Below, one piece after another: positions 21,108-32,418 of a DNA stretch of 35,056 bases (position 1 is its first letter; the number at the start of each line of letters is the position of its first letter). A program made the translations under genes and the position numbers. The notes under the pieces are model-generated. The model was not told the origin of the DNA, did no database searches, and was given only the letters and a program-made list of their open reading frames with translations. The stretch lies in sequence record ON470603.1, one strand, 5' to 3'. The stretch is from Escherichia phage vB_EcoM-720R4.

Positions 21108-22160
21108 TTATTTCCCCACCAGTTCACTTACCTCTTTCACCGTCTGATTAAACCGCTCTGACTCAAGTTCAACACCTAACGCCCGACGCCCCAGCGCCAT
21201 TGCTGCTTTTATTGTGGAACCGGATCCCATAAAGAAATCAGCAACCAGATCACCAGGTCGACTACTGGCATTGATTATTTGCCGGAGCATATCCGCCGGT
21301 TTCTCGCACGGATGTTTACCCGGGTAGAACTGAACGGGCTTATGCGTCCAGACATCGGTATAAGGCACGGAGACTGATACGGAGAAATAGCGCCGGAGAG
21401 ATTTAAACTCATCCAGCAATTCAGAATATTTGCGATTCAGTGAATCATAAGATGCCACCAGCTGGTGGTGTGGTTGTTCCAGTTGTTGTTCCTGAAACTT
21501 CTCTGCCGCTATACGGGAAAACAGTGCCTGTAACTTCCGATAGTCAGCCTCATTCGGCAACTGCCACTGACTGGCACCAAACCAGTGGGAAACCATATTT
21601 TTCTTACCTGTGGCTTCGGCAATTTGTTTTGCCGTTATACCCAGTTCGGCACGAGCATCCCTGAAATACGATATCAGCGGTGCCATTATGTGCTGTTTGA
21701 GTTCCCTTTCTTTTGCCGCATAGCCGTCACTTTTGCCGCGATATGGCCCCTGGTAATGTTCAGCAAACAGAACGCGCTCTGTGGCAGGAAAATATGCGCG
21801 CAGACTTTCTTTATTACACCCATTCCAACGTCCGGACGGCTTCGCCCAGATGATATGGTTAAGCACGTTGAAACGTTCACGCATCATGATCTCAATATCA
21901 GATGCCAGGCGATGCCCACAGAACAGGTAAAGGCTTCCGGCAGGTTTCAACACCCGCCAGAACTGGGCCAGACAGTGGTCCAGCCACTTAAGGTAATCTT
22001 CGTCCCCTTTCCACTGATTGTCCCAACCGTTAGGTTTCACCTTGAAGTAAGGCGGATCGGTAACAATCAGGTCAATGGAATCATCAGGCAGGGACTGAAT
22101 AAAATGCAGGCAATCAGCGTTGATTAAATCAACACTGTTTATTTTTACAGTATTTTTCAT
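21108..22160 (-). CDS. DNA methyltransferase (N6-adenine/N4-cytosine class, DPPY motif)
   Basis: 350-aa ORF with VTDPPYF motif near the N-terminus and a C-terminal AdoMet-binding-like region (FFMGSGST); no adjacent restriction endonuclease. Confidence 0.85.
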   Translation of the reverse strand: MKNTVKINSVDLINADCLHFIQSLPDDSIDLIVTDPPYFKVKPNGWDNQWKGDEDYLKWLDHCLAQFWRVLKPAGSLYLFCGHRLASDIEIMMRERFNVLNHIIWAKPSGRWNGCNKESLRAYFPATERVLFAEHYQGPYRGKSDGYAAKERELKQHIMAPLISYFRDARAELGITAKQIAEATGKKNMVSHWFGASQWQLPNEADYRKLQALFSRIAAEKFQEQQLEQPHHQLVASYDSLNRKYSELLDEFKSLRRYFSVSVSVPYTDVWTHKPVQFYPGKHPCEKPADMLRQIINASSRPGDLVADFFMGSGSTIKAAMALGRRALGVELESERFNQTVKEVSELVGK

Positions 22161-22310
22161 GGATCAGTAAGCGTAACTCTGGTAGGCTCACTCTGCTTTT
22201 GCGCTAAAGCAGTGGGCCGTGGTTCGCTTGTGACCAGTAAGCATGAGCGAATGGCTGGCAGGTGCTACCAACACCCACCAGCCGCCCATTTTCACAGCAG
22301 GAAACCGCCA

Positions 22311-22514
22311 TTACTGGCAGCGTCTGAATTTATTCCCGTACCCGCCGTTATCCTTCGCCAGACCCGCCAGAACTAACTGAGTCAGTATTAACTGGCACCG
22401 GGCTTCGCTTACTCCGGTAGTTCTCGTCATCATGCGTGGCGTTACCCACTTGTCAGCAGGTAAGAAATGAAGGACTGCGGCGGCGGTTTCTGTCATATCT
22501 TGCTGTTTTAGCAT
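22311..22514 (-). CDS. hypothetical small protein, possibly winged-helix DNA-binding
   Basis: ORF downstream of the candidate late terminator; start set at the internal ATG preceded by AAGGGA. Confidence 0.35.
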   Translation of the reverse strand: MLKQQDMTETAAAVLHFLPADKWVTPRMMTRTTGVSEARCQLILTQLVLAGLAKDNGGYGNKFRRCQ

Positions 22515-23532: not shown

Positions 23533-24528
23533 TTACGCCAATACGCCAATTGCCAGCGCACGATCGATAAAACGAAATATCAGCTCCAGCTGAGAGCCAT
23601 ACTTCTCTTCAAATGCCACGGTATCCGCATGCAGCTCGTCGTGATGCTTTCTGCACAAAGGCAACACAAAGAGGTCATGCGCTTTTGTACCCATTCCACC
23701 CTGACCGTGGCCTATCAGGTGGTGGGGATCATCAGCAGGCTTTCCACAACATGCACACGGCTGTGTCTTAACCCAGCGCGTGTACTTTTCATTAACCCAG
23801 CGGCGGCGTTTTGGGCGTAACATAAAAGACTCCGGCGACTCCGGATCCACTTTCAGCGCCAGCACCTTTTTCGCCTTATCCTGGATGATGCTGGTGGCAG
23901 GAACCGAAGGCACAAGGTCACTTTCCCGGGTGACAGACGGCACAACAGGCTTCGGTAATCTCAGTGCCTTACGGGCTGCACTTTCCGGTAAGGCATCCGC
24001 CAGGTCATTACGAATCAGCCACCAGCACAGTTCCGGCATTGTCACGGCATGGTTGTCATCAAAACCGAGATCCCGACGGACTACAGACAACACCCAGCGG
24101 GCACAGTTATCCGTTGCCATTGATTCCAGCCGTTCCGTGAACTGATCGCGCAGCTGGTTATCGCAGTGCCAGCACAGACGGATCGCGCCCGGCGCGTGTC
24201 GCATTGTGGTCATGTTCTCGCTGTGCCAGTCGGAATGAGGCCACTGGCAGCCTTTTTCACGAAGTAACCAGCTTTCAAGACATTCCACGCCACCAGCACG
24301 ACGGATCACTGCCTCATTGCGGAACACGGCCCTAACGGCAGGATCATCCGCCAGCGGTTGTGATGCCGCCGGAACGGCACCACTGGCGAAAGATGAATAA
24401 CGTTCCGGCTCAGGCTCCAGCAGGACACGCCCCTGCATAAACAGGGGCATCAGCTCTGAACCTGGTCTGAACAATACAATCCCCATACGCGGGGCTATTT
24501 CAGGGGTCAGTAGTGCTCTCACGGTCAC
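23533..24528 (-). CDS. DUF968-family protein (nin-region protein with C-terminal Cys/His motif)
   Basis: 331-aa ORF with CACCGKPADDPHHLIGHGQGGMGTKAHD...PLCRKHHDELH at the C-terminus; positioned between KilA-N and Q. Confidence 0.7.
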   Translation of the reverse strand: MTVRALLTPEIAPRMGIVLFRPGSELMPLFMQGRVLLEPEPERYSSFASGAVPAASQPLADDPAVRAVFRNEAVIRRAGGVECLESWLLREKGCQWPHSDWHSENMTTMRHAPGAIRLCWHCDNQLRDQFTERLESMATDNCARWVLSVVRRDLGFDDNHAVTMPELCWWLIRNDLADALPESAARKALRLPKPVVPSVTRESDLVPSVPATSIIQDKAKKVLALKVDPESPESFMLRPKRRRWVNEKYTRWVKTQPCACCGKPADDPHHLIGHGQGGMGTKAHDLFVLPLCRKHHDELHADTVAFEEKYGSQLELIFRFIDRALAIGVLA

Positions 24529-24529
24529 C

Positions 24530-25339
24530 TCAATGAACGGTATCGAGCAGCTTTAACAGCTCAGGGAATCGGGATTCGAAGAAATGCGGCTGCGTCTCAC
24601 GCGGATTTGCGGGACTGGTGATGTTCTTGCCGAACATGCAGCCTTTCGCCGTCAGCGACCAGAATTTTTTGATGTTGTTAATCCCGGTACGGCTGTATCG
24701 TTCGCGCTGCTCGACGATCCCCAGCTTCACCATCTGGTGATATGCCTGATTAGCCGTCAGGCGGATACCATACTGCTTCAGCAGTGCACTCAGCGACAGC
24801 GTCGGGCGGCTTGAGCCATCAGGCGCGTCAGCAGGTGCATCAATGGCATAGCGCGGTGCCAGATTCGGTAAGCCAACAGCCTCCTGGAGTTTCTGACAGG
24901 CCCCAAGCACAGATGAGTTAGACAGATTTAACTCCCGGCGCATAAAGTCCAGCAGAATCACGCCAGCCTGCATCTTGTCAGCCGCCTGTCCGGATAATTT
25001 TTCCGGTGCGCTGGTTACCATATCGAAAGTACGGATCACCTTCAGATGGAATGACGGGCTGATCCACATTGCATAGGCATACACCAGTTCCTTACAGACA
25101 TACGTTCCCCGTTCATTTCCCCCATGAATCACACTCACCGGGTCAACACCCAAATTCTGGGTGTTGGTTAATTCATGAACAAGCTCAACAGTTTGTTGGC
25201 TGGAAAGAAACTTTCCTGGCTCCTTGGTTCTGGCATTTGCACCAGATGCTACTGCTGCGCGATGCAGATCGTTCAGGCTGTAACGCCCATAAGCATCACG
25301 ACGAACTTCAATACCATCAATAACCATCAGATTATTCAT
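24530..25339 (-). CDS. KilA-N domain protein (antirepressor-like)
   Basis: 269-aa ORF whose N-terminus resembles KilA-N domains (GIEVRRDAYGRYSLNDLHRAA...). Confidence 0.7.
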   Translation of the reverse strand: MNNLMVIDGIEVRRDAYGRYSLNDLHRAAVASGANARTKEPGKFLSSQQTVELVHELTNTQNLGVDPVSVIHGGNERGTYVCKELVYAYAMWISPSFHLKVIRTFDMVTSAPEKLSGQAADKMQAGVILLDFMRRELNLSNSSVLGACQKLQEAVGLPNLAPRYAIDAPADAPDGSSRPTLSLSALLKQYGIRLTANQAYHQMVKLGIVEQRERYSRTGINNIKKFWSLTAKGCMFGKNITSPANPRETQPHFFESRFPELLKLLDTVH

Positions 25340-25358: not shown

Positions 25359-25748
25359 TCAGGCGGCTGCACCCGCCGTTTTCTCGTACTTACTGATAGT
25401 GATTTCGACCTTCCCTTCCGGGATAACCGGCCCCCACTCCACCAGCATTCTTTTCACCTGGCTGTCGTCCACCCACACACCCGCGTGGGTCAGGGCGTCA
25501 AACAGCGCCTTGTTATAGTTGTCCAGATCGCGAAGCCGGTTATCCGGAGGAAACAACACGATCTCCACTGAAGCTGGTGCCGACGTTGGTTTCGGCAAAC
25601 GACGTAACTGCTCAATGATGGCTGCACACGCTGCGCTCTGGAATTTTCGCCCCGCCGCGCTTATCAGGCTCTTACCTGCAAGCGCCCCTTTGTTGGGGTG
25701 TCGCCAGTACGTGTTCACGCTGGGCGGAAAAGGCAGTATTAGCTTCAT
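25359..25748 (-). CDS. rusA: RusA-family Holliday junction resolvase
   Basis: 129-aa ORF with DLDNYNKALFDALTHAGVWVDDSQV, typical of RusA; nin-region position. Confidence 0.8.
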   Translation of the reverse strand: MKLILPFPPSVNTYWRHPNKGALAGKSLISAAGRKFQSAACAAIIEQLRRLPKPTSAPASVEIVLFPPDNRLRDLDNYNKALFDALTHAGVWVDDSQVKRMLVEWGPVIPEGKVEITISKYEKTAGAAA

Positions 25749-26071
25749 ACTTTCAGGCCCCTCTCATGTAACCAGTGGGCTGCACGCAGCCTGGCGTTTG
25801 CCTCACCGGCAAGCAGTGCGCGGATAATCCCGACCGCCTCGCTGTCGTCGTCCTTCACCGCGGTATGAAGCGTGATGCCCCGGGCCACGCCACGCTTTAT
25901 CGTGATGACGCCTTTTTTCTCCAGTGCGCGAAGATGCTCCACCGCTGCATTCACTGAACGGTATCCCAGCATGGTTGCCACCTCCTGATTGGTTGGCGGG
26001 AAGCCACGTTCTTTCTGATAAGAAATCAGCATATCCAGCACCTGCTGCTGGCATTGAGTTAACGTCGTCAT
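25745..26071 (-). CDS. LexA-DNA-binding-domain-like protein lacking a protease domain
   Basis: 108-aa ORF; N-terminal LTQCQQQVLDMLISYQKERGFPPTNQEVATMLGYRSVNAAVEHLRALEKKGVI resembles the LexA winged-helix domain; no S24 peptidase region. Confidence 0.55.
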   Translation of the reverse strand: MTTLTQCQQQVLDMLISYQKERGFPPTNQEVATMLGYRSVNAAVEHLRALEKKGVITIKRGVARGITLHTAVKDDDSEAVGIIRALLAGEANARLRAAHWLHERGLKV

Positions 26072-26754
26072 GCCGCCATCTCCCTGACCAGTTTTTCTGC
26101 CTGCTGGCGAACCTGCGCCAGAAAGGCCTCACCACATGCCTCAAGTTCATCGCGCCCGATGTAGCTGATTGCCGGTCCCTTCCAGGTCTTGTCGAAAACA
26201 GCAATAGCACCAGCGAAGAAAGCGCCTGTCGGCACCTGCTTCTCATCCTTCGGGATAAACCAGGCAGGCAGTTCAAAACCAATACGCCCGCGAATAAAAG
26301 CAATATGATCTGCATCTTCCGGCCACCACACTTCGCTGGTGGCAGCTTTGATCAGGAAAACATAGCGCCCGCCTTTATCACGCATGGCACTGGCATGCTT
26401 CATGATGTAACGCATGCCGGTGATGTATTGCCCCTCATGCTGACTGGCGCGGCTGTATGGGGGATTACCAAAGGCAGCACCTTTAAGCTCCGCAAGGCGT
26501 TCTGACCAGTCATGCGCCAGCGCGTTGTCTTCCGCCGTGTAATACGCAGCACATTTGGCGTTATCACCGTCAGTGAACAGATCCAGAACAAACGGGCCAA
26601 ACAGGGTGTTAATTCCCCAGAAAATGTTGTCCGGCGTGCGCCACTGATCGCCCACTTCCTTCAGTTCATGGGCTGGTTTGTTCCGCAGTTCCGCCAGCGC
26701 CTGGCAATATTTATTACTCATTAAGCCCCCACGTAATTCCCTGAGAGATACCAC
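26068..26754 (-). CDS. phage Dam-like DNA N6-adenine methyltransferase (NPPY motif)
   Basis: GNPPYSR catalytic motif; an alternative start at 26721 (MSNKYCQ...) would abut the upstream gene's stop. Confidence 0.85.
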   Translation of the reverse strand: MVSLRELRGGLMSNKYCQALAELRNKPAHELKEVGDQWRTPDNIFWGINTLFGPFVLDLFTDGDNAKCAAYYTAEDNALAHDWSERLAELKGAAFGNPPYSRASQHEGQYITGMRYIMKHASAMRDKGGRYVFLIKAATSEVWWPEDADHIAFIRGRIGFELPAWFIPKDEKQVPTGAFFAGAIAVFDKTWKGPAISYIGRDELEACGEAFLAQVRQQAEKLVREMAA

Positions 26755-29307: not shown

Positions 29308-29402
29308 TTCTGTCTCCCGTTAAATTACGTTAAGCAGAAATGTAGGATATCCAACATACCAATGTCAAGAATCCTACATGGGCATGTGGTAGGATTGCCT
29401 AC
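29308..29402. promoter_or_regulatory. right operator/promoter region: PR-like promoter for cro (minus strand: TTGACA 29368-29363, TACATT 29344-29339), 17-bp operator TGTAGGATATCCAACAT (29341-29357) plus additional TGTAGGAT-type half-sites
   Basis: Divergent cI/cro intergenic region; near-palindromic operator with GGATATCC core; promoter hexamers read directly. Confidence 0.6.
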
Positions 29403-30056
29403 ATGATGAACATGAGTGATCGTATTCGCCAAAGGCGAAAAGAACTGAACCTGACACAACAAGCACTGGCTGATTTGACTGGTGTGAACCGTGTCACGGT
29501 TACTGGATGGGAAAAGGACGACTACCAACCAAATGGAGCCAACCTTCAAGCCCTAGCCAACGCACTTAAATGCGATCCTCTGTGGCTTGTTAGCGGAAAA
29601 GGCTCGCCTGAACCAAAGATAAATCTAAAACCTGAAATATTCGCAGTTAAAAAAGTCCCCCTCATCTCGTGGGTTCAGGCGGGTTCATGGACAATGACGG
29701 AGCCTGGTGTCAGGAAAGAAGATGCTGAAGAGTGGGTTTATACTACCGCCCTTGTATCAGAAATGGCATTTGCACTACGGGTCCGTGGTGATTCAATGAC
29801 CAATCCCCTCGGCTCACCATCGATACCAGAAGGTTCTATCGTTATCGTAGAGCCAGATATTATTGATACAGAGTGTATTAACGGAAAAATCGTTGTTGCC
29901 CATATCAATGGTGGGCAAGAAGCGACACTCAAAAAATTTGTTGAGGACTGGCCGAACAGGTATCTCGTCCCACTAAATCCTAACTATAAAACTATTGAAT
30001 GCGGTGAGAACTGCAGAATAGTTGGTCTTGTCAAACAAGTAATAATGGATTTTTGA
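29403..30056 (+). CDS. CI-like repressor (N-terminal HTH, C-terminal S24 LexA-like peptidase domain)
   Basis: 217-aa ORF with HTH (LTQQALADLTGVNRVTVTGWE) and a C-terminal domain with Ser ... Lys catalytic residues (GDSM ... TLKKF); RBS AGGA 7 nt upstream. Confidence 0.9.
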   Translation: MMNMSDRIRQRRKELNLTQQALADLTGVNRVTVTGWEKDDYQPNGANLQALANALKCDPLWLVSGKGSPEPKINLKPEIFAVKKVPLISWVQAGSWTMTEPGVRKEDAEEWVYTTALVSEMAFALRVRGDSMTNPLGSPSIPEGSIVIVEPDIIDTECINGKIVVAHINGGQEATLKKFVEDWPNRYLVPLNPNYKTIECGENCRIVGLVKQVIMDF

Positions 30057-30728: not shown

Positions 30729-31165
30729 TTGATTTTCCTTTTATGTATACGGGCTTAAAAGGATACCACCGAGCCTGAAGTGGTGAAAAGACAGGCACAT
30801 AACAGCTAAGTATTTTCAACCAGAGAGAATCCTTAGCGTTGTGGTGAATGCGGCTCAGCGCACGCGGGTTAAGGTTGAGGCTGACAGTCGACCTTCTGTG
30901 GATACCCACCCGCCTGGTGTGCAACCTTCGCCAGGCACCGGGAGGCACCCGGCACCACAACTTTATGCTGTGTGTAGTCCTCGCGGTACCAGTTTGTACA
31001 CTTGCTTCCGGCTGGTACCGCTCTTTTTACAAAACAGAGAAGAGCATCACCGGACGACGGGCTCATAACCCAATCCATCCGGGCGGCTGCCACCGCAGGT
31101 GTTCTTCTCTGTTTTGTGGAGAAACCAACCGACCTTGCAGGGTCGATATGATGAGGAGCAGCAAA

Positions 31166-31593: not shown

Positions 31594-32418
31594 ATGTCTC
31601 AGAACTTAGACTCAACCGCAATTAATCAAATCCATGCCCTTATTTCTGCTCAGGGTGTTAATGAAATTATCAGTAAGATTGGTGCCGATGCTGTGGCATT
31701 GCCTGAGAATTTCCGCATTCATGATCTGGAAAAATTTAATTTAAATCGCTTCCGTTTCCGTGGCGCGCTTTCCACTGCCAGCATCGATGATTTTACCCGT
31801 TATTCTAAAGATCTTGCAGATGAAGGCACCCGCTGCTTTATCGATGCTGATAATATGCGTGCCGTTAGTGTGCTTAACCTGGGTACTATTGATGAACCAG
31901 GTCACGCAGATAACACCGCCACTCTCAAACTGAAAAAGACAGCACCGTTCTCTGCTCTGTTGTCTGTTAACGGCGAGCGTAACTCCCAGAAGTCACTGGC
32001 AGAATGGATTGAAGACTGGGCCGACTACCTTGTGGGCTTTGATGCGAATGGTGACGCCATTCAGGCAACAAAAGCGGCTGCGGCAGTCCGTAAAATCACG
32101 ATTGAAGCAAACCAGACCGCTGATTTTGAAGATAATGACTTCAGCGGCAAACGCTCCCTGATGGAGTCTGTCGAAGCGAAGACCAAAGACATTATGCCAG
32201 TGGCATTTGAATTTAAATGCGTTCCGTTTGAAGGCCTTAAAGAACGTCCGTTTAAATTACGCCTCAGCATTATCACTGGCGATCGTCCTGTACTGGTTCT
32301 GCGCATTATTCAGCTGGAAGCGGTGCAGGAAGAAATGGCTAACGAATTTCGTGATCTGCTTGTTGAGAAATTTAAAGACAGCAAAGTAGAAACCTTTATT
32401 GGTACTTTCACCGCCTGA
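31594..32418 (+). CDS. YfdQ-like protein (DUF2303)
   Basis: 274-aa ORF; gene order with the following HD-domain gene matches the yfdQ-yfdR-yfdS-yfdT arrangement of the E. coli CPS-53 prophage as I recall it. Confidence 0.65.

Follow-up and report, generated by a model that had tools for sequence, protein, structure and literature searches.

We found that the 108-aa protein encoded at positions 25745 to 26071 of the window, the whole 35,056-nt stretch of Escherichia phage vB_EcoM-720R4 DNA (ON470603.1), is a LexA-type winged helix without the S24 autoprotease domain. This identity is confirmed by profile searches and by a structural model. Outside the LexA DNA-binding domain, about 35 of its residues make up a conserved tail, which the earlier sequence-only reading of this DNA had left out. 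That reading suggested that the protein could bind SOS boxes or phage operators as a decoy or as an SOS-insensitive regulator, and such a role seems plausible from the retained residues. We tentatively propose, as a serious possibility, that the protein would mimic LexA in a RecA-proof way, binding SOS boxes of the CTGT type in lytic growth; the proposal draws on annotation-level homology and comparative genomics.

The window is an E. coli lambdoid prophage of the SfV-like type. The 1.5-kb segment around the LexA-like gene is 99.9% identical to E. coli HH107 (NZ_CP116405.1), and the gene itself is 100% identical. The gene and the features around it are as follows.

25745 to 26071, minus strand: LexA-like gene, 108 aa plus stop codon, from the ORF list; homologue of SfV orf42; PHROG 362.
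26068 to 26754, minus strand: Dam-like phage N6-adenine methyltransferase (Pfam Dam, 1.2e-45; TIGR01712, 1.7e-76, above cutoff).
25359 to 25748, minus strand: RusA Holliday-junction resolvase (Pfam RusA, 1.1e-14).
23533 to 24528, minus strand: DUF968 gene, Orf-like domain plus HNH (Pfam DUF968, 2.8e-81).
26080 to 26084, minus strand: GGGAG Shine-Dalgarno, read from the sequence, within the 3' end of the Dam-like gene.
29339 to 29368, minus strand: pR-like promoter TTGACA-18-TACATT, from a consensus scan (10 of 12 matches), adjoining the divergent cI-type repressor gene.
29403 to 30056, plus strand: cI-type repressor gene (HTH_3 and Peptidase_S24).

The ATG of the LexA-like gene lies 8 nt from the GGGAG Shine-Dalgarno and overlaps the stop codon of the Dam-like gene in an ATGA, and its TGA stop overlaps the rusA ATG in another. 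These 4-nt overlaps at both ends bear out the earlier claim that the gene is translationally coupled between the Dam-like gene and rusA, and the coordinates given at that time (25745-26071) were also correct. The minus-strand order is cII-like gene, replication gene, PerC/yfdN-like gene, Dam-like gene, LexA-like gene and rusA, followed by KilA-N, DUF968/HNH, Q, a small ORF, an N6_N4 DNA methyltransferase and holin; the genes overlap across the conserved block, which leaves nearly zero intergenic DNA. The LexA-like gene is situated about 3.3 kb downstream of the pR-like promoter, with a minus-strand gene order without long gaps between them. The transcript that covers the gene probably starts at this promoter, a link that we infer. 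In the leftward early region of the prophage, positions 30808 to 31030 (plus strand) matched the Rfam STnc100 sRNA at 49.1 bits against a gathering score of 47 bits. Among the database proteins, predicted Dam/LexA-like and RusA/LexA-like fusions are rare (P0024, P0092, P0121, P0254, P0266 and P0253; 179-243 aa, in clusters of 1-7 sequences), and frameshifts at the ATGA overlaps, not true fusions, probably account for them.

Residues 1-65 of the protein matched positions 1-65 of the 65 positions of the Pfam LexA_DNA_bind profile (PF01726; E = 2.9e-19; 69 bits, cutoff 23.7). A search of PDB chains by sequence returned the E. coli LexA DNA-binding domain (E = 6e-16), and phrog_362 ('transcriptional repressor') aligned residues 1-108 with its positions 1-106 of 106 (E = 4.2e-59). 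The NCBIfam LexA equivalog TIGR00498 scored 70.7 bits, which is below its cutoff of 110.95, and was covered only at positions 1-91 of 203. An AlphaFold2 model was run on a 30-sequence alignment and reached a pLDDT of 82.6; a single-sequence model (pLDDT 52) was discarded. Over residues 1-68, the model can be superposed on DNA-bound E. coli LexA at 0.9 Å with 50% identity. Helices are formed by residues 6-22, 28-35 and 40-52 and wing strands by residues 56-58 and 66-68, and the recognition helix reads SVNAAVEHLR; the linker at residues 71-74 was modelled with low confidence. The two parts of the protein are as follows.

Residues 1-69, 25865 to 26071, minus strand: LexA-type winged helix-turn-helix.
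Residues 74-108, 25748 to 25852, minus strand: amphipathic two-helix tail, from the alignment, the per-column hydrophobicity and the model.

Thus, the resemblance to the LexA N-terminal winged helix was borne out by the PF01726 match and the superposition, and structure prediction with alignment to LexA, which had been proposed as the check, gave the LexA fold and no unrelated fold. The absence of the autoprotease was likewise verified, since the Pfam scan found no Peptidase_S24 match in the 108-aa protein. The protein stops at residue 108, where rusA begins at its stop codon, and it is without the catalytic Ser119/Lys156 dyad. Because it has no S24 domain, it cannot undergo RecA-stimulated self-cleavage, and it was rightly described as non-cleavable. 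We compared it with E. coli LexA (PDB 1lea, 3jso): the winged-helix fold is shared, whereas the S24 autoprotease/dimerisation domain and the hinge of LexA are replaced by the two-helix tail. PADLOC, which searches for defence systems, gave only a weak generic winged-helix match (E = 3.6e-4), and membership in a defence system was rejected on this result.

The gene is already known as an object, and is annotated as "LexA DNA binding domain protein", "LexA-like protein", "transcriptional repressor" or "LexA family transcriptional regulator" in many phage records. Using tblastn, we found 49 phage records with a 95-99% identical protein, among them SfV (orf42), SfII, SfIV, mEp460, cdtI, three Stx2-converting and 15 Stx2c-converting phages. 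SfV orf42 and the SfII and mEp460 genes are the same gene, annotated by similarity, and the order Dam-like/LexA-like/RusA is found in most of the listed records. A survey of Stx phages listed a pfam01726 "LexA family" pham 237 in 15 phages without functional comment (PMC8136144). Full-text literature searches found no experimental or functional study of the enterobacterial family, and returned only GIL01 gp6 and mentions in genome surveys. Among 5426 complete E. coli genomes, 2233 (41%) carry the gene (at least 95% nucleotide identity), in up to four copies and under the name "LexA family transcriptional regulator".

The family was defined as the relatives found by profile search. According to their source annotations, these come from E. 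coli, Citrobacter, Salmonella, Cronobacter, Klebsiella, Atlantibacter, Kosakonia, Enterobacter and Hafnia, and no S24 domain was found in the relatives of 105-135 aa. Thirty members with 40-89% identity to the window protein were aligned, and Q8, G23, P26, E30, G36, S39, N41, L50, K53, I56, R64, G65, I66, A97 and L101 were invariant. The median pairwise dN/dS was 0.09-0.22 over 155 distinct alleles, which shows that the gene is under purifying selection; by part, the value was 0.23 for the N-terminal domain and 0.58 for the tail, the latter being a short and noisy estimate. These data bear on the idea that the gene is a decaying, functionless remnant of a captured lexA. The first tail helix does align weakly with the LexA hinge, with A-G-E at the Ala84-Gly85 position, as would be consistent with a truncated lexA. 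However, the dN/dS is well below 1, the length is constant at 105-135 aa over at least seven genera (by source annotation), the tail has a conserved consensus, and 41% of complete E. coli genomes carry the gene. A remnant is therefore highly improbable.

The tail consists of helices 74-88 and 93-103, modelled with a pLDDT of about 88, and has the consensus EAVxLLRALxAGExxARERAIxFLxxRG. Its hydrophobic positions (79, 80, 82, 83, 86, 87, 93, 97, 98, 100 and 101) are conserved in relatives with as little as 40% identity, with A97 and L101 invariant as listed above. A structure search with the tail returned generic wHTH regulators only and no specific match. The conserved apolar surface exceeds what a 70-residue domain would need, so a dimer interface is the simplest reading. 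We suggest from this pattern that the family-conserved two-helix tail, an addition of the present analysis, probably serves dimerisation.

Residues 86-90 of the tail (LLAGE) align with VAAGE at the Ala84-Gly85 cleavage site of LexA, in a weak hinge alignment. We considered the tail as a LexA cleavage loop or pseudo-substrate and rejected this for the family, because the AGE triplet varies among members and takes a helical form in the model. At this site other members have VERES, IAEEP or LNNEP; the model places the site where a helix ends, and the protein has no protease in cis.

Direct readout of CTGT by LexA has been ascribed mainly to S39, N41, A42 and E45 (PMC11442139). N41 and E45 are described as key base contacts and R28 as a backbone contact, and the E45K change abolishes specific binding (bioRxiv 10.1101/2020.07.14.201889). 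The window protein is identical to LexA at S39, N41, A42 and E45 and in the RGI wing. Because all four reading residues are retained, SOS-box binding is favoured in the E. coli type, which looks competent for CTGT reading as judged from these residues. R28 is replaced by N and E44 by V in the window protein, and the LexA residues at these two positions are kept in none of the 30 diverse family members.

S39 and N41 do not vary across the 30 members, but at position 45 twelve have E, eight have D and the other ten have L, T, I or G. It is L in the Klebsiella type, which sits in a dinI operon. By subfamily, positions 42-45 of the recognition helix read AAVE, AATD, AVLL, TVFI and AALT. All the hosts share one SOS box while position 45 varies; thus, the family as a whole is not constrained to CTGT. 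This variation is the main argument against a universal role as an SOS mimic.

It may be asked whether the protein is a site-specific regulator whose specificity has drifted from the SOS box, and which activates or represses a phage or host promoter through a non-LexA operator. Differences at positions 42-45 between subfamilies are typical of phage regulators with private operators, and the loss of R28 and E44 points in the same direction. There is also a precedent: gp6 of the Bacillus tectivirus GIL01, a truncated homologue of LexA, recognises GaCACAnnTGTGaC and switches on the late promoter P3 (PMC6182141). Like the window protein, gp6 is a phage-encoded LexA DNA-binding domain without the protease domain and is not RecA-cleavable. 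It is the closest studied case, and it acts as an activator, not as a decoy. However, gp6 has 66 aa, no tail and an origin from a Gram-positive LexA, whereas the window protein carries an extra 35-aa tail; gp6 serves a tectivirus as an activator at a non-SOS palindrome, and the window protein belongs to a lambdoid/SfV-like phage with Q antitermination. BLASTP between them gave no alignment at E ≤ 100; the relation runs through the LexA domain only.

Other data speak against drift. Perfect palindromes with 6-nt arms did not recur above the shuffle expectation in the window and four representative loci (L093, L173, L185 and L003), and the overlapping genes leave scant intergenic DNA in the conserved block. 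The E. coli type has kept the four primary reading residues. We regard a drifted specificity as possible but doubtful; the independence of the allele from immunity and late modules, described below, also counts against it. If a private operator does exist, the protein would be a further case of phages reusing the LexA domain as a regulator, as in GIL01.

Under the proposed LexA mimicry, the protein would be a small DNA-binding regulator derived from a gammaproteobacterial LexA, in which a phage-specific tail has replaced the S24 domain. It would be expressed from the rightward (pR) operon as a delayed-early protein, with translation coupled to the Dam-like gene and rusA. It would then dimerise through the amphipathic tail, and its S39, N41, A42 and E45 would read the CTGT-type half-sites of SOS boxes. 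Without an S24 domain or a functional cleavage site it would be insensitive to RecA*. After host LexA has been destroyed in prophage induction, the protein may re-occupy LexA operators on the host chromosome and in resident phages, with the outcome that SOS-controlled genes are damped or time-limited.

LexA bacterial two-hybrid systems work on the principle that the LexA(1-87) DNA-binding domain represses SOS promoters when joined to any module that dimerises. Such engineered fusions have the same proposed architecture and are non-cleavable, although they are artificial, whereas the phage tail is natural and its dimerisation is predicted. Cleaved LexA fragments are removed by ClpXP and Lon (PMC6590174). 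The mimic is workable because a LexA domain with a dimeriser makes a good repressor and because cells clear the cleaved fragments. A more far-reaching form of the proposal is a natural 'uncleavable LexA', in which a dimeric phage LexA domain re-silences the host SOS regulon together with the LexA-controlled genes of co-resident prophages, after RecA* has destroyed host LexA. This wider form is conceivable rather than likely. If it holds, a lytic phage would control SOS output.

If SOS-box binding is true, many E. coli strains, Stx-phage lysogens included, would carry a RecA-insensitive second LexA during prophage induction. The SOS response could then be shortened or reshaped, and neighbouring prophages with LexA-controlled antirepressors could be induced differently. 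Toxin output and antibiotic-induced mutagenesis could also change.

A search of the prophage for LexA-box-like sites, which had been suggested earlier as a check, was made using a PSSM built from 25 E. coli LexA boxes, whose training sites score 13-27.6 bits. It returned one strong box.

22133 to 22152, strand not assigned: SOS box TACTGTAAAAATAAACAGTG (minus-strand reading), exact CTGT-N8-ACAG, the only strong site in the window.

The box scored 23 bits, whereas the best score in 200 shuffles was 18.8. It falls across codons 3-9 of the N6_N4 DNA methyltransferase, which is located between Q and the holin gene. The box is kept in Citrobacter phiNP, Klebsiella Kp4866-6, Morganella IME1369_02 and Providencia PSTRCR_117lys, where the changes preserve the box quality. 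The LexA-like gene is absent from the phiNP, Morganella and Providencia loci within the 9 kb or less covered on either side of the box, and this methyltransferase occurs within 10 kb in only 22 of 80 E. coli-type loci. We therefore rejected the box as a dedicated target of the phage protein. It is best explained as a host-LexA operator, and possibly it is also a candidate, though not dedicated, target of the phage protein. Its position and conservation suggest that the methyltransferase is an accessory gene of the late region under LexA control.

Two other elements were noted beside this box. Upstream of the methyltransferase, about 150 nt of non-coding DNA (22161 to 22310, minus strand) are highly conserved, in the Morganella and Providencia phages as well. 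The stretch begins GGGCGGCTGGTGGGTGTTGG...CCAGCC and has predicted stem-loops, of which only 2 pairs covary; no Rfam family matched it, and it could be a leader or an antitermination-type RNA. Between a terminator-like hairpin after Q and the methyltransferase lies a 67-aa ORF (22311 to 22514, minus strand), a homologue of SfV orf47 for which no Pfam match was found.

We collected 218 viral-contig loci in three subfamilies, and the counts were made over 80 E. coli-type, 80 Klebsiella-type and 56 Cronobacter-type loci. DUF968 was present in 74 of 80, 80 of 80 and 52 of 56 loci, respectively, and was the only neighbour common to all three subfamilies. RusA was found in 80 of 80 E. coli-type, none of 80 Klebsiella-type and 55 of 56 Cronobacter-type loci. 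The linkage of the LexA-like gene to the DUF968 gene is constant, and there is none to any single immunity or Q module.

This linkage raises the question of whether the protein is an accessory DNA- or protein-binding subunit of the nin-region recombination and repair set (Dam-like, RusA and the DUF968 Orf-HNH protein) rather than a transcription factor. In DUF968, an Orf-like recombination mediator is joined to HNH (PMC4118853). DUF968 adjoins the gene in 206 of 216 loci, although the subfamilies share only 40-50% identity, and RusA does so in 135 of the 136 E. coli-type and Cronobacter-type loci; the translational coupling to the Dam-like gene and rusA would fit as well. However, the order of nin-region genes is commonly conserved and is no sign of partnership, and the Morganella and Providencia loci have DUF968 but no LexA-like gene. 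The invariant S39, N41 and RGI wing also indicate sequence-specific reading of the major groove. We consider an accessory subunit to be unlikely.

For the E. coli-type allele (97-100% identical), the cI gene was at least 90% identical in only 8 of 70 loci and the same Q/late module was present in only 19 of 59, whereas RusA and DUF968 were found in 59 of 59. Because the allele travels with differing immunity and Q/late modules, its function is not tied to one phage's operators or late promoter. A target independent of any one phage's operators would agree with a universal host site, as LexA mimicry would have it. With no recurring palindrome and this low Q/late linkage, a role as late-promoter activator like that of gp6 is unsupported.

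LexA-controlled promoters recur near the gene in other loci. Of the 80 Klebsiella-type loci, 72 have dinI driven by a sigma-70 promoter (TTGAAC-17-TATACT) that a strong SOS box overlaps; the order is dinI-orf96-LexA-like-orf67-DUF968-Q, and no gap exceeds 40 nt. In Edwardsiella EPP-1, rha (Rha-family), lexA_2 and DUF968 come after an SOS box; lexA_2 encodes a 71-aa LexA domain without a tail, with the recognition helix SPNAAEDHLK. In the E. coli type, a KilA-N gene directly after rusA has an SOS-box promoter in 12 of 80 loci. Cronobacter-type loci are poor in SOS boxes (9 in 0.9 Mb). The recurrent juxtaposition with LexA-controlled promoters and DinI accords with a role in an SOS circuit, in a scan whose loci all bear the gene. 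This is no proof of such a role, because temperate enterobacterial phages often carry accessory genes under LexA control (PMC7556043).

Several observations concern individual loci. The KilA-N allele with the SOS box has its own upstream region with the strong box TACTGTATTTATGAACAGTG (L010, 10656 to 10675, and 11 other loci), and from this arrangement it looks like a LexA-controlled antirepressor-type gene; the KilA-N allele of the window (24530 to 25339) is without this upstream region. In mEp460 (L002), the very strong SOS box TACTGTTTTTACATACAGTA (25 bits, 31970 to 31989) lies inside or at the 5' part of an annotated cI-like S24 repressor gene. Twenty-three E. coli-type loci have this box, -3 to -5 kb from the LexA-like gene; it belongs to another immunity type and is absent from the window. 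In the Klebsiella-type locus L093, positions 6271 to 8833 encode a reverse transcriptase (RVT_1, YADD motif) and a 541-aa protein on the opposite strand, upstream of the dinI/LexA-like operon, and this region is probably a retron-type defence insertion.
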